The notes under the pieces were generated by a model, which saw only the letters and a list, made by a program, of their open reading frames with translations, searched no databases and was not told the origin of the DNA. This document shows positions 37,914-62,277 of a DNA stretch of 64,000 bases, in pieces. Source of the stretch: a bacterium (GTDB taxonomy: Bacteria > UBP6 > UBA1177); assembly GCA_016290135.1 (NCBI GenBank), contig JAEESW010000004.1:40066-104065 (forward strand), read 5' to 3'. The translations under genes were made by a program, and so were the position numbers. Positions within the stretch are counted from its first letter, which is position 1. Every line of letters begins with the position of its first letter.

Positions 37914-38030
37914 AAAATATTGAAAAATTGCCATTTTTGCCTTGAAAATATATTGAAAAGTTGGTTTTTTTGATCCGAAAAGATATTGAAAAGTAGTCTT
38001 TTTTAGTCCGAAAATATATTGAAAAGTCGG
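37914..38030 (+). repeat. Orphan 4 x 33-bp periodic direct-repeat array
   Basis: ATATTGAAAA core starts at 37917, 37950, 37983 and 38016 (exact 33-bp period), between convergent genes. Confidence 0.85.
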
Positions 38031-39903: not shown

Positions 39904-40818
39904 TTATTTGCTCCCCAGTTTTTTATCCATTTCAAAATATCCTTTCCGGTATGCGATTTTTTCTTTCAACAGAACGGATTTTGTTGAGATCTTTTTTGAA
40001 AAAATATTCATAAAAAAATCTGCAAAAATCATTGCAGAATAAGTCAAATATTTGAAATAATGGCTGAAAAATGGCAGCCTTCCTAAAACGAATCTTGCGG
40101 TCATGCCGGTTCTCTTTGCTTTTAGTTTCCGTTTTTCAATATTATAATTGTTTTCATTCATCCGGTGATAGATCTTGATTTCAGGATCGTAAAATAATTT
40201 AAATCCGGCATTTTTTGCCCTATGACAGATATCGGTATCTTCGCCCATCATCAGAAAACCATCTTTTGTGTTGAAATTATTGGAAAATCCATTAAGTTTT
40301 TCCAGTACTTCTTTTTTTAAAGCAATATTTCCGCAACCGAGAAAGCAGTCTTTTCGTTGATTCAAAATACCTTTTTGTCGGTTTTTGTTGGTTCCCCCCA
40401 TTGATTCAATAAACCAACCCGGAGGATCAGCATCGTATTTCAGCATGCATATTCCACCGACGATATCTGGTTTTTCTTCTATTTGAAAAGCCTTTTCAAT
40501 GCTTTCAAGCCAGTCCGGTGCTGCGATCTCATCATCATCAATATATGCGATAATGTCGCCGGAAGCATTTTTCCAACCGCAGTTTCGTGGTGCGGAATAT
40601 CCGATAATTGATTCTTTAAAATATTTGATATTGTTGTGATTTTTTACCAATTCTTTTGCAGTTTCTTCGGTGTTATCAGTCGAATTATTATCTACGATTA
40701 TTATTTCAAAACGGTTTTTATCTACAGTTTGGTTAAGCAGAGAATCAACGCAGTCGGCCAGAAGAGCAGCACGATTGTGGGTGCAGACAACAACTGATAT
40801 TTCAGGTTTTTCTGTCAT
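39904..40818 (-). CDS. Glycosyltransferase family 2
   Basis: ISVVVCTHNR, VDNNSTD, YIDDD, GEDTD. Confidence 0.92.
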   Translation of the reverse strand: MTEKPEISVVVCTHNRAALLADCVDSLLNQTVDKNRFEIIIVDNNSTDNTEETAKELVKNHNNIKYFKESIIGYSAPRNCGWKNASGDIIAYIDDDEIAAPDWLESIEKAFQIEEKPDIVGGICMLKYDADPPGWFIESMGGTNKNRQKGILNQRKDCFLGCGNIALKKEVLEKLNGFSNNFNTKDGFLMMGEDTDICHRAKNAGFKLFYDPEIKIYHRMNENNYNIEKRKLKAKRTGMTARFVLGRLPFFSHYFKYLTYSAMIFADFFMNIFSKKISTKSVLLKEKIAYRKGYFEMDKKLGSK

Positions 40819-50201: not shown

Positions 50202-50403
50202 AACCCCTCAGCCGCTGCTTCGACGAGCTCAGCAACCGGCAGCTCCCCTAATTTAGGGGCGCCTTTCTAACATTAGCAAGCCTCCACTGAGTCAGGGGAG
50301 GTGTCACGCAGTGACGGTGGGGTCTGTAAAGCCGCCAACCCCTCAGCCGCTTTGCGGCAGCTCCCCTGATTTCAGGGGCGCCTTGACGGGGCGCCTATCT
50401 AAC
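50202..50403. repeat. REP-like cluster (A, inverted B, A) downstream of DUF559 gene
   Basis: A = ACCCCTCAGYC..GGCAGCTCCCCT..AGGGGCGCCT at 50202 and 50337; inverted copy AAGCCTCCACTGAGTCAGGGGAGGTGTCACGCAGTGACGGTGGGGT at 50278. Confidence 0.9.
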
Positions 50404-50770
50404 GTTGCGTAGGATCTGCACATATTCTTTGTTGGATAATGTCATCAATTTTTGTGCAGACAGATGAAAAATCGGAGTCTATTTCTTTATTTGGAAAACG
50501 CAGGACCATAAAGCCTAATGCATTTAAAATATTGGTTCTTTCGGCATCGTGAGCTAATCCGTCTTCTGTGTAGTGCTGGCTTCCGTCAAGTTCTATGATT
50601 AATTTTGCTTTTGCACAGCAAAAATCAACAACAAATTTGTTTATGATTTTCTGCCTACATATTTTTATAGGATAATGCCGCAAAAAATCGAACCATAAAT
50701 GCTTTTCCTGAGGAGTCATTTCTTTGCGCAACATTCGCGCTGCTTCTATCAGAAGCCGATTCTTTCTCAT
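50399..50770 (-). CDS. DUF559 (Vsr-like) endonuclease domain protein
   Basis: AR.LRK.MT..E..LW, RQ..I..FVVDF.C....LIIELDGSQH, D..R...L...GF.VLRF.N. Confidence 0.9.
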   Translation of the reverse strand: MRKNRLLIEAARMLRKEMTPQEKHLWFDFLRHYPIKICRQKIINKFVVDFCCAKAKLIIELDGSQHYTEDGLAHDAERTNILNALGFMVLRFPNKEIDSDFSSVCTKIDDIIQQRICADPTQR

Positions 50771-50850: not shown

Positions 50851-50959
50851 AACCCCTCAGTCAACCTTTGGTTGGCAGCTCCCCTAATTTAGGGGCGCCT
50901 ATCTAACATTAGCAAGCCTCCACTGAGTCGGGGGAGGTGTCACGCAGTGACGGAGAGGT
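50851..50959. repeat. REP-like inverted doublet upstream of DUF559 gene
   Basis: A (50851-50900), TCTAACATTAGC spacer, B (50914-50959); near-identical to 50238-50323. Confidence 0.9.
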
Positions 50960-51043
50960 CAGGATCCTGATTCGGTTTTTCTAGCGATTTCCGGGGATTT
51001 CATATTTTTTGCTTTTTCAACCTGCTTTTTGTGCAAAATTGTC

Positions 51044-51162
51044 AAAAAATCTTGATTTGGTGTGAAAGTAACCCATAAAAAATCTTGATTTGGTGTGAAA
51101 GTAACCCATAAAAAATCTTGATTTGGTGTAAAAAATGCCGTATAAAAATCTTGATTTGGTGT
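51044..51162 (+). repeat. 4 x 33-bp direct-repeat array overlapping promoter of ATPase 1
   Basis: 20-bp core (A/T)AAAAATCTTGATTTGGTGT at 51044, 51077, 51110 and 51143 with 13-bp spacers; contains TTGATT-17-TATAAA (51118-51146). Confidence 0.92.
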
Positions 51163-51185
51163 AATTCGCACTCTGGAGGGATATC

Positions 51186-52538
51186 GTGAGAAGAAAAATC
51201 CTTGAAAAAATAGCGGAATGGAAGAGGACTGGCAACGGAAAAACAGCCTTACTCATTGATGGTGCCCGGCGTGTCGGAAAAAGTTATGTCGCGGAAGAAT
51301 TTGCCAAGAATAATTATAAATCATACCTTTTGATTGATTTCAACGAAGCCGGGCAGGAAATTAAAGATCTTTTCGAGCAGAATCTCAGGGATTTGGATCA
51401 TTTGTTCACTTTTTTGTCTGCAGTATACAGAGTAAAGCTTTACGAAAGAGAATCTCTGATTATTTTTGATGAAGTCCAGTTATGTCCCAGAGCTCGCGCC
51501 GCAATAAAATTTTTAGTGGCAGACGGCAGATACGACTACATCGAAACAGGTTCGCTCGTCTCTATCCGCAAAAATGTGAAGGATATAGTAATTCCTTCCG
51601 AAGAGCGTCATTTGAAAATGTATCCCATGGATTTCGAGGAGTTTTTGTGGGCTTTAGGCGAAGATGCTTTGTGGCAGGTTATCAAAACCTGTTTTGAAAA
51701 AAAGCAACCTCTTGCTCAGGCACTTCACCGAAAGGCGATGACGCTTTTTCGTGAATATCTTATCATCGGCGGAATGCCTCAGGCGGTAAGCGAATACCTG
51801 TCATCAAAAGATTTTCAAACCGTTGACGCTGTAAAAAGGGATATTCTTTCGTTGTACCGCGACGATATTATCAAACATGCTTCAGGTTATGAGCGTAAAG
51901 TCACCGGAATTTTTGATGAAATACCTTCACAACTTTCAAAACATGAAAAGAAGTTTTCTCTCTCCGCATTGGGCAAAGGGATAAGGTCAAGAGATTATGA
52001 GAGCGCATTTCTTTGGCTTGAAGATTCAATGATTGTCAATATTTGCTACAATTCAACAGAACCGAATATCGGCCTTAAACTCAACCGTGACAACTCGTCA
52101 ATGAAGATTTACATGGGTGATACCGGCCTTTTGATAAGCCATGCATTTGATGAAAACGGAATAGTAACCAATGAAATTTACAAAAAACTTCTGTTTGGAA
52201 AACTTGAAGTCAACGAGGGAATGCTTTTTGAGAATATTGTGGCGCAGATGCTCACTGCCAACGGTCACAAACTTTATTTTTATTCAAACGCGGCAAGAAA
52301 CGACAGAACTTCCAGAATGGAAATTGATTTCCTTATCGCGAAATCAAAAATTACCGACCGGCACAATATTTCTCCTCTGGAAGTTAAGTCAGGCAAGAAC
52401 TACACTCTTTCTTCAATAAACAAATTTTGCAATAAATTCAGAGAACAACTTAACACCCCGGTTGTGCTTCACACCGAAAACCTGTTTAAGAAAGACGAGG
52501 TTGTCTGCCTTCCCGTTTACATGACGATGTTTTTGTAA
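51186..52538 (+). CDS. AAA_14 ATPase + DUF4143 (PD-(D/E)XK-like C-terminus) protein 1
   Basis: GARRVGKS, FDEVQ, TGS, PMDFEEFL, GGMP, K.YM.DTGLL, G.LFEN, EIDF...PLEVKS. Confidence 0.9.
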   Translation: MRRKILEKIAEWKRTGNGKTALLIDGARRVGKSYVAEEFAKNNYKSYLLIDFNEAGQEIKDLFEQNLRDLDHLFTFLSAVYRVKLYERESLIIFDEVQLCPRARAAIKFLVADGRYDYIETGSLVSIRKNVKDIVIPSEERHLKMYPMDFEEFLWALGEDALWQVIKTCFEKKQPLAQALHRKAMTLFREYLIIGGMPQAVSEYLSSKDFQTVDAVKRDILSLYRDDIIKHASGYERKVTGIFDEIPSQLSKHEKKFSLSALGKGIRSRDYESAFLWLEDSMIVNICYNSTEPNIGLKLNRDNSSMKIYMGDTGLLISHAFDENGIVTNEIYKKLLFGKLEVNEGMLFENIVAQMLTANGHKLYFYSNAARNDRTSRMEIDFLIAKSKITDRHNISPLEVKSGKNYTLSSINKFCNKFREQLNTPVVLHTENLFKKDEVVCLPVYMTMFL

Positions 52539-52565
52539 TTCAACCTGCTTTTTCGTGCGAAATCC

Positions 52566-52589
52566 GGAGACGTATCCCTATACGTCTCC
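52566..52589. repeat. GTAG-family-like REP palindrome
   Basis: GGAGACGTAT-CCCT-ATACGTCTCC. Confidence 0.6.
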
Positions 52590-52639
52590 TTTTCAAGGCA
52601 CCCTATTGAAAATTTTTGCGGATTTCCGCATTTTTCTTC

Positions 52640-52683
52640 ACTGAAAACTTTTACCAAAACCCGAAAAAGTTTTCAGTAGCGAC
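52640..52683 (+). repeat. 44-bp hairpin repeat, copy 1
   Basis: ACTGAAAACTTTT..AAAAGTTTTCAGTAG; 41/44 identical to 55847-55890. Confidence 0.85.
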
Positions 52684-52742: not shown

Positions 52743-52771
52743 TTGACTGTTCACGGCAATTCAGTTAAAAT
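52743..52771 (+). promoter_or_regulatory. Putative sigma70 promoter of ATPase 2
   Basis: TTGACT-17-TAAAAT. Confidence 0.55.
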
Positions 52772-52854
52772 TATCATAACTCTAAAAGTTGTTTTTAGAG
52801 TATGTTATTGAAATTTTGGTCGACAATGCCGAACTTTTTTCAGTAGGTGTTTTT

Positions 52855-54093
52855 ATGAAAAGAGATTTATACACCCGCCAACTTGTTAGAAAGATGCATA
52901 ACGGTATGATTAAAGTTGTGACTGGGATCCGCAGATGCGGCAAGTCATATCTTTTATTCAACCTTTTCCGCAACCATCTTGTCAGTGAAAATGTTCCTGA
53001 AGATCATATTCTTGAAATGGCGTTTGATCTTTACGAGAACAAGAAATTTCAGAATCCTGAAGTTTTTTATCCGCATATAAAGTCGCAGATCAAAGACGGC
53101 GGCATGTATTATGTCTTGTTGGATGAGGTTCAACTTCTCGGCGATTTTGAAGCGATACTCAATAGTTTGTTGAGAATGCAGAATGTGGATGTTTATGTGA
53201 CCGGAAGCAATGCAAAGTTTTTGTCGAAAGATGTGATCACAGAGTTTAGGGGGCGTGGAGACCAGATCCACCTCTATCCCCTGTCATTTGCTGAATTTCT
53301 GCAAGCTTATAAAGGAAGCAGCATCGAGGCATGGAGGGAATATTCCATGTACGGCGGATTACCGAAACTCCTGGATATTTCTGATGATCGCGATAAGGCT
53401 GTTTATCTTGAATCCATTTTTTCAGAAACGTATTTAAAGGACATTTTGGAAAGAAACGATGTCCGCAATACAAATGAAATTTCTGAACTGTTTGATTTTA
53501 TTGCATCTTCTGTCGGAGGGCTTTCCAATCCAAAAAAACTCTCGGATACTTTCAAATCTGTAAAAAATGTTTCGATTCACCCCGACACAATAAAAACCTA
53601 TCTGGATTATTTTGAGGAATCTTTTTTAATAAGCCGCGCAGTCCGCTATGACATTAAAGGAAAAAAATATATCAATACTCCTAGTAAATATTACTTCACG
53701 GATATGGGGTTAAGGAACGCCCGTTTGCATTTCAGGCAATATGAAGAAACCCATATTATGGAAAACATCATTTACAATGAGCTTTTGACACGCGGTTATT
53801 CCGTTGATGTCGGTGTTGTTGAAGTCACAGAACGCACTGCGGAACAGAAAAAGGTCCAAAAACAACTTGAAGTCGATTTTGTGTGCAATCTCGGTTCTTC
53901 GCGATTGTATATTCAGTCAGCGCTTAGTATTTCTGATGCTCAAAAAGAAAAGCAGGAACAAAATTCCTTGGAACGCATTCCGGATTCATTTGAAAAAATT
54001 ATTATCGTCAAAGATATTCCAACGCATTATAATGATTCAGGGATACTCATCTTAAATCTGTTCGATTTTTTGATGAACACAAATCCGTTTTAA
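52855..54093 (+). CDS. AAA_14 ATPase + DUF4143 protein 2
   Basis: TGIRRCGKS, LDEVQ, TGSN, PLSFAEF, YGGLP, KYYFTDMGLRN, MENI, EVDFV...YIQS; likely start MKRDLY. Confidence 0.9.
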   Translation: MKRDLYTRQLVRKMHNGMIKVVTGIRRCGKSYLLFNLFRNHLVSENVPEDHILEMAFDLYENKKFQNPEVFYPHIKSQIKDGGMYYVLLDEVQLLGDFEAILNSLLRMQNVDVYVTGSNAKFLSKDVITEFRGRGDQIHLYPLSFAEFLQAYKGSSIEAWREYSMYGGLPKLLDISDDRDKAVYLESIFSETYLKDILERNDVRNTNEISELFDFIASSVGGLSNPKKLSDTFKSVKNVSIHPDTIKTYLDYFEESFLISRAVRYDIKGKKYINTPSKYYFTDMGLRNARLHFRQYEETHIMENIIYNELLTRGYSVDVGVVEVTERTAEQKKVQKQLEVDFVCNLGSSRLYIQSALSISDAQKEKQEQNSLERIPDSFEKIIIVKDIPTHYNDSGILILNLFDFLMNTNPF

Positions 54094-54228: not shown

Positions 54229-54277
54229 GAATTTCGTGCAAAAATCATCTGAAAACACCGGAAAAAGTGATTTTTTT

Positions 54278-54362: not shown

Positions 54363-55682
54363 TTAGGCAATTTTCATAGCGATTTCAATGAGTTTGCCGA
54401 GTTCGTCGGTCAGATAAAGCGGAACATTCAGGATCTTTCCATCGAAAGAAAGATTTTTTAGTGAAAAACGGATCGCCAAAGGTGTTATTTTACTGAAATC
54501 GTTGAGATATTTCTTGATGCTTGCCGCATGGACATTTATTCCGGCCTTTACTTCGACAGGGAGAATGTCGTTTCCTTTCTGAATGACAAAATCGACTTCA
54601 TGAGCGGTATCAGACCAATAATAAGGTTTTGTATCGAAGTGGCGAAGAAGAGTCTGAAAAACGAAATTTTCGGTCAAAGCACCCTTAAATTCGGTGAAAA
54701 GCCTGTTTCCTTCGCTAAAAGCGGAAGTCGCAAGCCTTGAATGCCTGCGCAGAAGTCCCACATCCCCCATATAGATTTTGAACGCCCCGATATCCTCGTA
54801 AGCACTCATCGGAAGTCCCGGTTTTGTTATACGCGGTACGCATCCGACAACATTTGCATTTTTAAGCCACTCGAGAGCGTTTTCGTATTCTCTCGCGCGA
54901 GCCCCTTCTTTAACTGCAGAATAGAGGAACTTTTTATTTTCACGGGCGAGTTGCGACGGAAGCGATGTCCATATCCTTCTGATCTTAGGCACATCGAAAT
55001 TGGGTGCATGCTTTCCGAAATCGCTTTCGTAGGAATCAAGGATCGCGCTCAAGATCTTGTCAACTTCGGAAATGTCGGCCTCTTCGCTCCATATTTTGAC
55101 CGGTTCCGGCATTCCGCCGATCGTAAGATAGATTTTAAGTTTTTCGGTCAACGGGTTTGCGAAAGCGTCGGGAATCGTCTCGATAGAGTCGATATTTTTC
55201 ATGTATTTAAGCAGATTTTCATCTCCGCAGGCAAGCAGGAACTCGCTGAAAGTCATAGGTCCCATATCGAGGAAATCGACTTTGCCTACAGGAAAACCGT
55301 CTGACAGAGTGAGCCCGAGAAGCGATCCTGCGCTTGCGATATAATATTCCGATGCGTCTTCGCAAAAATATTTGAGTGAATTGAGTGCAGCGGGACAAGC
55401 TTGAATCTCATCAAAAATCACAAGAGTCTGCGGTGTGATCTTTTTTCCGGTCGAAACAGCCAGATTTTGGAGAATGCGCCGGACATCTTTTGTAGTTTCG
55501 AAAAATTGGGCATGCTCGGGATTCTTATCGAAATTTATGCTTACAAAGCCGTTCTCAAACTCTTTACCGAACTCTTCAAGGATCCAAGTTTTGCCGACCT
55601 GTCTCGCACCGCGGAGTATCAAAGGCTTTCTGTGTTTCGAATCTTTCCACTTTCTTAAATCATCAATAATGAACCGCTTCAT
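54363..55682 (-). CDS. AAA_14 ATPase + DUF4143 protein 3
   Basis: GARQVGKT, FDEIQ, AGSLLG, PMTFSEFL, GGMPE, KIYM.DVGLL, GALTEN, EVDF...PVEVKA. Confidence 0.9.
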   Translation of the reverse strand: MKRFIIDDLRKWKDSKHRKPLILRGARQVGKTWILEEFGKEFENGFVSINFDKNPEHAQFFETTKDVRRILQNLAVSTGKKITPQTLVIFDEIQACPAALNSLKYFCEDASEYYIASAGSLLGLTLSDGFPVGKVDFLDMGPMTFSEFLLACGDENLLKYMKNIDSIETIPDAFANPLTEKLKIYLTIGGMPEPVKIWSEEADISEVDKILSAILDSYESDFGKHAPNFDVPKIRRIWTSLPSQLARENKKFLYSAVKEGARAREYENALEWLKNANVVGCVPRITKPGLPMSAYEDIGAFKIYMGDVGLLRRHSRLATSAFSEGNRLFTEFKGALTENFVFQTLLRHFDTKPYYWSDTAHEVDFVIQKGNDILPVEVKAGINVHAASIKKYLNDFSKITPLAIRFSLKNLSFDGKILNVPLYLTDELGKLIEIAMKIA

Positions 55683-55764
55683 GGCAATCTCCCTTAAAAA
55701 ATCGCTTGATTATTATTCCAAATCACTTTCAAATCAACAAAAATCACACATTTTTTAAAAATTA

Positions 55765-55780
55765 TGTGATTCCAATCACA
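55765..55780. promoter_or_regulatory. Palindromic operator-like site upstream of ATPase 3
   Basis: TGTGATT-CC-AATCACA; AATCACAC repeated at 55742 and 55774. Confidence 0.5.
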
Positions 55781-55846
55781 CTTTTTGCAGAAATTTTGTG
55801 CAAAAATTATCCGGAAATACCCGGAAAAAGTGGCAGATTTCCACAA

Positions 55847-55890
55847 ACTGAAAACTTTTGCCAAAACCTGAAAAAGTTTTCAGTAGAGAC
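55847..55890 (+). repeat. 44-bp hairpin repeat, copy 2
   Basis: Direct repeat of 52640-52683. Confidence 0.85.
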
Positions 55891-62123: not shown

Positions 62124-62256
62124 AACCTCTCAGTCGCTGCGAGTGTTCTGACCCCTCAGTCTGCTTCGCAGCCAGCTCCCCTAATTTAGGGGCGCCTTTC
62201 TAACATTAGCAAGCCTCCACTGAGGCAGGGGAGGTGCCACAAAGTGGCGGAGGGGT
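62124..62256. repeat. REP-like inverted doublet (DUF559-associated family), gene-free
   Basis: Partial A at 62124, A at 62151-62197, TCTAACATTAGC spacer, B at 62211-62256. Confidence 0.9.
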
Positions 62257-62277
62257 GAGGTTTTTAGGAGGTTTTTC

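Follow-up and report, generated by a model that had tools for sequence, protein, structure and literature searches.

A 64,000-nucleotide stretch of a bacterial genome (GTDB lineage Bacteria; UBP6; UBA1177), comprising positions 40,066 to 104,065 of contig JAEESW010000004.1 in assembly GCA_016290135.1 and hereafter called the window, was found to carry four direct repeats at an exact 33-bp period immediately upstream of a gene (gene 1) for an ATPase-nuclease of the candidate defence family PDC-S01. The comparisons described below establish the conservation of this array, its position and its privacy, and to judge from the aligned sequences it is a conserved cis-element travelling with the gene. 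Probably, the array is a private set of phased operators read by the winged helix of the gene's own product, an arrangement that would give cooperative autorepression. Gene 1 and its upstream region comprise the following features:

51044..51162, + strand: four cores, AAAAA(A)TCTTGATTTGGTGT, repeated every 33 bp exactly (sequence, Tandem Repeats Finder)
51118..51146, + strand: putative promoter, TTGATT (-35, in core 3), 17-bp spacer, TATAAA (-10, in spacer 3)
51174..51179, + strand: ribosome-binding site GGAGGG (sequence)
51186..52538, + strand: gene 1, 450 amino acids, AAA_14 plus DUF4143, PADLOC PDC-S01 (Pfam, PADLOC, conserved motifs)
51882..52121, + strand: codons of the predicted winged helix, residues 233-312 (AlphaFold2, Foldseek)
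52122..52535, + strand: codons of the PD-(D/E)XK nuclease domain, residues 313-450 (Pfam, conserved residues, AlphaFold2)

The 14-mer core TCTTGATTTGGTGT starts at 51050, 51083, 51116 and 51149; AAAAAATCTTGATTTGGTGT starts at 51044, 51077 and 51110, and the fourth copy, (T)AAAAATCTTGATTTGGTGT, at 51143/51144. The final core ends at 51162, leaving 23 bases (51163-51185) before the GTG at 51186. Tandem Repeats Finder reported the same interval (51044-51162, period 33, 3.6 copies, 91% matches) with a score of 187, the highest of the window, so that the core described in a preliminary description of this DNA, repeated four times at an exact 33-bp period and ending 23 bp before the GTG, was borne out by both the sequence and the program. 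Repeat units 1 and 2 lie within a 53-nt stretch that is repeated at 100% identity, the 13-bp spacer included, and the window has four units instead of the usual three because one of these two identical units is a recent duplicate. When up to one mismatch was allowed, TCTTGATTTGGTGT matched four times in the whole 2.47-Mb genome, always in the array, and the backwards control gave no match. The promoter elements claimed in the preliminary description, a -35 in the third core and a -10 in the third spacer at 17-bp spacing, are likewise present in the sequence (TTGATT at 51118-51123, spacer at 51124-51140, TATAAA at 51141-51146), and GTATAAAAATC is retained in the last spacer of several same-genus orthologs; with this putative promoter, core 4 would cover the transcription start. 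The GTG start of gene 1 is supported by same-genus orthologs, in which an ATG aligns with it and AGAAGAAAAATCCTTGAAAA follows as in gene 1. Logan contigs from sequencing runs covered only small shares of the window; four that were placed on it gave short pieces, of which two from RNA libraries fell inside the gene 1 open reading frame (ORF) and none was usable over the array.

Two sets of homologous loci were surveyed for the period, one from genome contigs (n = 80, with 52-86% protein identity, 77 of them with an intact N terminus and upstream DNA) and one from metagenome contigs (80 of at least 594 matches taken, 77 tested). For the phase test, the upstream 200 bp were compared with themselves at lags of 15 to 60, and the best 14-nt match was kept if at least 12/14 bases agreed. 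The best lag in the genome loci was 32 bp in three, 33 bp in 61 and 34 bp in nine (n = 73/77), and three of the four loci below threshold still peaked at 33 or 34 bp with 11/14 bases; the 32-33-bp arrays that the preliminary description had anticipated upstream of DUF4143 homologs were thus recovered, at 32-34 bp, in nearly all of this set. The metagenome loci gave 33 bp in 56 and 34 bp in 11 (n = 67/77), 35 bp in one and no lag in nine. As a background for this genome, about 22 of the 2,044 ORFs of at least 200 amino acids passed the test at 32-34 bp; the 24 ORFs listed in the background test include seven of the 22 DUF4143 paralogs tested, and 12 of the 17 others were scanned against Pfam and were all unrelated genes. 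By record label, the array was carried by Bacillota (42/45), Lentisphaerota (5/5), Bacteroidota (5/5), Spirochaetota (4/4), Mycoplasmatota (4/4), Pseudomonadota (1/1), Thermodesulfobacteriota (1/1), the archaeal Thermoplasmatota (1/1) and bacteria without a phylum in the label (10/11), that is, by seven named bacterial phyla and one archaeal phylum among the 77 genome loci.

In the same-genus loci, recovered by a DNA search of 61 relatives' genomes, the match began at query position 307-308, which corresponds to 51077, and entered the gene; BLASTN of the window against these loci placed the homology from 51077 to 52540/52541, from array to stop codon, between unrelated flanks. These loci hold two to four cores, AAAAATC(TT/GC)GATTTGGTG, at 33 bp with free spacers. 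An iterated weight matrix gave nnAAAAATCTTGA-WWW-S-GTG-TAAAAT, followed by about seven variable bases, as the unit of the family, and at least two matrix cores at 31-35 bp spacing were found in 120/155 upstream regions (two cores in 23 loci, three in 75, four in 16, five in 4 and six in 2). Among 54 loci with 1.5-kb flanks, the 200 bp upstream of the gene held 159 cores on the gene strand (51/54 loci) and none on the opposite strand; elsewhere, the gene strand and the other strand had 19 and 3 cores over the next 1,300 bp upstream, 4 and 2 within the gene, and 11 and 6 over the 1,500 bp behind it. A transposon with inverted ends would not give such a pattern, the cores being direct and strictly upstream. 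No flanking ORF was common to more than 10 of the 54 loci, those 10 being one group of close relatives; with no other constant neighbour, the ATPase gene is therefore the only gene that always accompanies the array.

The position of the array relative to the promoter was classified in 120 loci, a -10 box being defined as a match at 5/6 positions or more that includes A at position 2 and T at the sixth:

-10 box abutting the last core (0-3 nt after GTG, ...TTGATTTCGTG-TATAAT): 40/120 loci
-10 box further downstream of the last core: 18/120 loci
-10 box in the unit before the last core, the arrangement seen in the window: 30/120 loci
-10 box only further upstream: 9/120 loci
no -10 box: 23/120 loci, the window among them, its TATAAA failing the rule of T at position 6

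The -10 box thus lies in the last unit or further downstream in 88/97 loci with a recognisable one. In many loci of Bacillota and Mycoplasmatota the 16-17 bp separating TTGAAA from TATAAT are taken up by the last core, and the leader has only about 14 nt; given a -10 box at or after the last core and a leader of this length, the array is therefore expected to be mostly or wholly untranscribed. The upstream units keep the core AAAAATCTTGA-N4-GTG, and their TATAAT decays to TAAAAA.

The cores are private to each gene. The genome holds 23 DUF4143 matches, and the closest paralog of gene 1 (C41, 59% identity) carries CTTGGAATCGTG in three copies at 33 bp. Further paralogs have AAAAACTCGCTTGAAAAAGTG (C15, three copies at 33 bp), GGAATTTTGTGA (C36, four copies at 32 bp), TGGAGATTTTGTGA (C29, three copies at 33 bp) and GTCCAAAAATATGCAAA (C52, three copies at 33 bp). 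Cores that are unrelated yet equally phased among the paralogs of a single genome make it unlikely that a general host factor is the reader. Other subfamilies, which BLASTP did not align with gene 1, show 23-bp or 40-42-bp periods or palindromes, in contrast to 32-33 bp in the alignable ones, and the period therefore follows the protein subfamily. Two more PDC-S01 genes lie in the window downstream of gene 1, with the following features:

54363..55682, - strand: paralog 3, PDC-S01 (Pfam, PADLOC)
55742..55780, - strand: operator-like sites of paralog 3, TGTGATT-GG-AATCACA at 55765-55780 and a second TGTGTGATT at 55742-55750
52855..54093, + strand: paralog 2, PDC-S01, start revised to ATG 52855
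52566..52593, + strand: hairpin GGAGACGTAT-CCCT-ATACGTCTCC followed by TTTT, read from the sequence, likely terminator of gene 1
52617..52640, + strand: TGCGGATTTCCGCA (52617-52630) followed by TTTTTCTTCA, terminator-like with a T run, behind gene 1
52807..52844, + strand: inverted repeat ATTGAAATTTTGG...CTTTTTTCAGT, located 3' of the best promoter match of paralog 2 and 5' of its ribosome-binding site

Distinct upstream motifs for these two paralogs, and a private array for each of the three genes, had been proposed in the preliminary description. The palindrome of paralog 3 held up: TGTGATTCCAATCACA is found at 55765-55780 with the second TGTGTGATT 32 bp further on, and its family has at least two half-sites in the 200 bp upstream in 22/26 loci (mean 2.35, versus 0.17 in shuffled sequences), successive half-sites of the same orientation being 31-32 bp apart in 19/20 cases. 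The motif assigned to paralog 2, TGCGGATTTCCGCA, scores instead as terminator-like and lies 126 bp upstream of the -35 of that gene's best promoter match (52743-52771); the hairpin at 52566-52593 is stronger than the one at 52617, and was not listed by the terminator scan because it is followed by four T only. For paralog 2, ATG 52855 was taken as the start, since the alignment of homologs with the longer TTG ORF begins only at residue 23. Only 3/77 relatives shared the outer arms of the inverted repeat in front of it, and no family-wide motif was established. Support for a private array therefore extends to genes 1 and 3; for gene 2 such an array is not established.

Gene 1 matched the PADLOC candidate PDC-S01 models end to end (E = 8.4e-118), as did paralogs 2 and 3 at full length (E = 1e-117 and 5e-167), and PF13173 (AAA_14) and PF13635 (DUF4143) were above their cut-offs in all three, which correspond to COG1373. 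The catalytic motifs of the ATPase and of the PD-(D/E)XK nuclease are intact in gene 1 (Walker A G26-S33, D95/E96, D381/E399/K401); among 53 sequences, G26, G31, K32, S33, D95, D381, E399 and K401 were invariant and E96 nearly so. In an AlphaFold2 model built on 53 homologs (pLDDT 89.5, pTM 0.90), residues 1-156 form the AAA+ core and residues 157-232 a helical lid. Residues 233-312 make up a winged helix, with its helices at 236-250, 259-262 and 272-280 and its wing strands at 284-290 and 306-310, and the alpha/beta domain behind it bears D381, E399 and K401, the signature residues of PD-(D/E)XK. No solved structure matched the gene 1 product when searched by sequence. Foldseek against the Protein Data Bank (PDB) placed the archaeal AAA+ ATPases 2qen and 2fna in the top ranks, followed by Orc1/Cdc6 on origin DNA (2qby_B and 2v1u_A), and then by subunits of the origin recognition complex (ORC) and STAND ATPases. 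The TM-scores were modest (0.25-0.5 overall, and 0.25-0.30 for Orc1/Cdc6, E = 3e-6 to 4e-6), and the likeness to Orc1/Cdc6 is therefore one of architecture only. A predicted body of this kind, Orc1/Cdc6-like AAA+ plus winged helix, makes binding of the protein to its own array plausible.

Residue-base covariation was analysed in 115 loci, with 400 traits simulated on the tree. The base before the invariant GTG, G or C, was associated with residue 265, which was Gly in 37/49 G-type and 0/46 C-type loci. The base after GTG, A or T, was associated with residue 270 (Glu in 16/22 A-type and 5/76 T-type loci), and AAA or TTT in the core with residue 303 of the wing (Arg in 36/39 AAA-type and 8/46 TTT-type loci). 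All three residues fall inside the predicted winged helix, 265 and 270 in the turn before helix 272-280 and 303 in the wing, and it is with such parts that a winged helix usually contacts DNA. For the base before GTG, four of the five best columns were in the winged helix, a share that was reached by 1/400 simulated traits. In a first set of 67 loci, the observed value was reached by 7/400 simulations for base 16, 13/400 for base 20, 152/400 for AAA/TTT and 38/400 for the pooled traits. In four more distant paralogs of the genome, Glu270 went with A after GTG in 2/2 cases, and the Gly265 rule fitted the single C-type paralog and not two others. Plain mutual information between core bases and protein columns was discarded, as variable columns and phylogeny dominated it. 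This covariation, which is underpowered, is suggestive of a role for the winged helix; the preliminary description had expected the core to covary with the helix-turn-helix region of the protein, and a signal of this kind was seen for the trait before GTG.

The boundaries of the cassette formed by the array and gene 1 (cassette 1) coincide with a direct repeat of 24-25 bp that encloses it exactly:

51016..51039, + strand: upstream copy of the bracketing direct repeat, TTCAACCTGCTTTTTGTGCAAAAT (sequence, repeat search)
52539..52563, + strand: downstream copy, TTCAACCTGCTTTTTCGTGCGAAAT, beginning at the first base after the stop codon

Two units of this repeat lie 33 bp apart in a convergent intergenic region of contig C47 (L302, 330-385), where no DUF4143 gene is present, and the bracketing repeat of cassette 1 is therefore itself an array-type unit. 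Cassette 3 is bracketed by a 37-nt direct repeat (54230-54266 and 55792-55828, 81% identity) and cassettes 2 and 3 together by a 44-nt one (52640-52683 and 55847-55890, 93% identity), a pattern suggestive of nested insertion of cassettes, with their flanks duplicated. In 7/53 family loci, namely the window and six loci of one close group (L056-L066), the flank before the array and the flank after the stop codon shared an exact direct repeat of 15 nt or more, so that two lineages are represented. In L056-L066, labelled Bacilli or Mycoplasmatota, the exact repeat has 17-30 nt, consists of the 3' end of the upstream gene with its terminator hairpin, and recurs right behind the stop codon of the cassette. 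A second 33-bp array in the window, at 37917-38027 (3.4 units, core ATATTGAAAAGT), stands between convergent amine oxidase-like and glycosyltransferase-like genes and has no ATPase gene. In genome G010 (L297) this same array has four cores, the last about 20 bp before the ATG of a PDC-S01-type gene, whereas in genome G001 it occupies the same syntenic place with the gene missing, as in this genome; the most likely account of the array at 37917-38027 is an orphan set of operators whose cassette has been lost. Locus L013 (genome G008) has an intact three-core array, about 200 bp of unrelated sequence and then an N-terminally truncated homolog, and is a decayed copy of a cassette. On sequence grounds, the bracketing repeats and the orphan arrays would fit cassette turnover at arrays.

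The ATPase is the natural candidate reader of the cores because it is their only constant neighbour and has a winged helix. In the mechanism that we propose, one protomer or one dimer would bind each core through the winged helix. The 33-bp spacing, about three helical turns, would set the bound proteins on one face of the DNA, where neighbours could touch, and occupancy would therefore be cooperative. With the -35, the spacer or the transcription start covered by cores, it would shut the gene's own promoter, and a nuclease that may damage its own cell would be autorepressed tightly and in a switch-like manner. As every paralog has a core of its own, the 23 copies in the genome would not cross-talk. 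Both the binding and the cooperativity are what we infer from the arrangement.

Several observations weigh against autorepression by the gene's own product. The consensus promoter scan made no call for the TTGATT/TATAAA pair of the window, since its TATAAA lacks the T that the scan demands at position 6, and the 23 loci without a recognisable -10 box include the window for the same reason. The covariation columns were picked after the fact, and core type follows the protein tree, as physical linkage alone would give; on supported branches there were seven independent pairs, of which about 5.1 went the same way and none the other (median p about 0.06). Three of the five traits carried no winged-helix signal, a part of the expected covariation that did not hold: AAA/TTT and C/T after GTG showed no enrichment there (241/400 and 302/400 simulations did as well), and the C/T position of the core goes best with residue 371, in the nuclease domain. 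The paralog 2 family has no tandem period in 61/77 loci and scattered ones in the rest, so that PDC-S01 does not follow this design throughout. Arrays also persist as orphans (37917-38027, C47 and relatives), and an array can thus outlive its gene or may serve something else. Finally, the organism labels of metagenome-assembled genomes, on which the phylum counts rest, can be wrong.

The array might be bound by the protein for a main purpose other than gene control, either as a platform for assembly or parking, on which an inactive oligomer would be kept as a mark of self, or as landing or recombination sites of the cassette. The core-like direct repeat around cassette 1, the repeats around cassette 3 and around cassettes 2 and 3, the flank-joining repeats of seven loci in two independent lineages and the persistence of orphan arrays all speak for such a purpose. 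Against it, the cores lie exactly over promoter elements in most loci, as regulation predicts, no inverted core set was found downstream of the gene in 54 loci, the flanking repeats occur in only two lineages, and no recombinase-type domain was found with Pfam. We regard this explanation as rather unlikely if taken instead of regulation, although a parking or landing role and a regulatory role are compatible with each other. A bolder combination of the two, which we put forward as distinctly unlikely, would make PDC-S01 proteins self-addressed, Orc1/Cdc6-like array readers, of which the copies polymerise on their own 33-bp array, with the gene silenced and the nuclease parked, and for which arrays are also the landing places of cassettes; cassette 1 would then have come to lie between two units of an older array type, the unit being duplicated on both sides, and the orphan arrays would mark the sites of lost cassettes. 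Still less probable is a reading in which no cassette protein reads the units, which would have arisen by tandem duplication of a promoter or UP-element region or would serve a general host factor as binding sites. The units are indeed promoter-like, with an A tract, TTGA and TAAAAT or TATAAT, some loci (L032) have TGnTATAAT in every unit, and units 1 and 2 show that tandem duplication does occur. However, only about 5 bp separate the TTGA-type from the TAAAAT-type hexamer within a unit, too few for a sigma-70 promoter, and upstream units retain the core while their -10-like part decays. A host factor would use one motif per genome, in conflict with the unrelated cores of paralogs in one genome, and the same core family extends from Bacillota to an archaeon, which differ in transcription machinery.

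Short tandem repeats directly upstream of a potentially toxic nuclease, with a unit of 33 nt compared with 36 nt, also recall a type III toxin-antitoxin system, in which the repeat transcript would be processed to give a ToxI-like RNA, the antitoxin of the nuclease; the predicted fold of the array strand is slightly more stable than that of shuffled sequence (z = -2.45, an unremarkable value). The preliminary description had disfavoured this possibility, and rightly so: the -10 box is at or after the last core in 58/120 loci and in the last unit in 30 more, leaving the repeats mostly outside the messenger RNA, no terminator was found between the array and gene 1 in the sequence or by the terminator scan, Rfam gave no match in the array at E up to 1, and the protein is of the AAA+/PD-(D/E)XK type and not a ToxN/AbiQ RNase. 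The 13-bp spacers, moreover, vary freely, whereas a fold would constrain them, and an antitoxic RNA is for these reasons highly improbable. Hardly credible, lastly, is that the array represents the iterons of a replication origin and the ATPase an Orc1/Cdc6- or Rep-like initiator of a small integrated replicon. Such an origin would account for the Orc1/Cdc6-like fold and for phased direct repeats beside an initiator-like gene, as in plasmids and archaeal origins, but 23 paralogs are present in a 2.47-Mb genome in ordinary chromosomal contexts such as a polysaccharide locus, and the whole unit measures just 1.5 kb, with its end at the stop codon. In addition, the cores overlap a promoter and do not flank an unwinding region, no inverted cores are present, and the conserved nuclease domain is not a feature of initiators.

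Private operators of the proposed kind can be compared with four known systems. Orc1/Cdc6 proteins (2qby, 2v1u) resemble the gene 1 product at the level of the fold (TM 0.25-0.30) in that a single chain combines an AAA+ core with a helical lid and a winged helix, and repeated recognition sites lie beside the gene of the presumed reader. Origin boxes are inverted around an unwinding element, whereas PDC-S01 cores are direct and lie on a promoter; no inverted boxes flanking an AT-rich unwinding element were found, with the 159 cores of the 200 bp upstream all on the gene strand. The winged helix of PDC-S01 is, moreover, internal and followed by a C-terminal nuclease, and there are 23 copies per genome. 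Plasmid iterons are phased, element-private direct repeats by a Rep gene, which is autorepressed through repeats in its promoter, and here too phased direct repeats adjoin the gene of a presumed binding protein. Unlike them, PDC-S01 is chromosomal and without a replicon, the cassette lying in a chromosomal polysaccharide locus and ending at its stop codon; the 33-bp period includes 13 variable bases, no Rep-family domain was found in the gene 1 product with Pfam, and nothing points to a role in replication. Restriction-modification systems with controller (C) proteins and C-boxes, and autoregulated toxin-antitoxin operators, involve a small separate helix-turn-helix protein and two palindromic sites. 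They share with the present proposal cooperative operators over the promoter of a defence or toxic nuclease locus and a low, switch-like expression after transfer, and differ from it in that the presumed PDC-S01 reader is a domain of a large effector and the sites are two to six direct repeats at 33 bp. ToxIN, with 36-nt toxI repeats, is alike in its short tandem repeats directly upstream of a toxic-looking gene; the PDC-S01 repeats are mostly untranscribed, have no terminator before the gene and belong with another protein family, and neither a ToxN/AbiQ toxin nor a known antitoxin RNA family was found. By analogy, the array would appear to work like iteron-Rep or C-box autoregulation and to look like Orc1/Cdc6 with its boxes, and is a member of neither.

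In the text covered of two papers, PDC-S01 is an ATPase fused to a PD-(D/E)XK domain, ranks among the most common candidate defence loci (fourth among prokaryotic candidates and the commonest single locus in rumen genomes) and is not yet validated (PMC12988326, PMC13356809), as holds for most PDC candidates (PMC12988326). DUF4143 is listed as a PD-(D/E)XK family with unknown function (PMC3424549), and a DUF4143-related restriction endonuclease (REase) is mentioned in a 2026 preprint. The same covered text deals with the protein and its abundance and has no cis-element, DNA-binding domain or regulation (PMC12988326, PMC13356809), and upstream repeats were not described in the papers that full-text searches on DUF4143, PDC-S01 and COG1373 brought up, a coverage that does not extend to the PDC-defining paper or to supplements. 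Within that literature, regulation of PDC-S01 by an array may therefore be undescribed. The array, the winged helix within "DUF4143" and the residue-base pairs turn a bare domain annotation into a testable model; if it is true, cooperative binding of the protein to a known sequence in its own promoter is to be expected, and the operators would also explain how 23 paralogs coexist in a small genome without cross-talk. Phased operator control would here be attached to one of the most abundant uncharacterised gene families of prokaryotes, and the array offers a sequence handle for finding cassettes, orphan sites and insertion boundaries. If arrays were landing places as well, a common "defence candidate" family would consist of semi-autonomous genes that spread by targeting operator arrays.

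The three PDC-S01 genes of the window lie inside a polysaccharide locus, in which Pfam identified a Wzt-type ABC ATPase, a GT11 glycosyltransferase, a methyltransferase and an acyltransferase. Directly upstream of cassette 1 is a DUF559 gene with a Vsr-like endonuclease fold (50399-50770, - strand), which together with the three PDC-S01 genes forms a small nuclease-rich island in that locus. A GC-rich structured element of about 110 nt is present at 50852-50963, and also at 50238-50324 and 62151-62260. It has no Rfam match, and the copy at 50852-50963 has a predicted fold of -48.8 kcal/mol (z = -2.68, unremarkable). The element occurs in many copies dispersed through the genome and the genus, its 3' 30-45 nt or so being the commonest piece.

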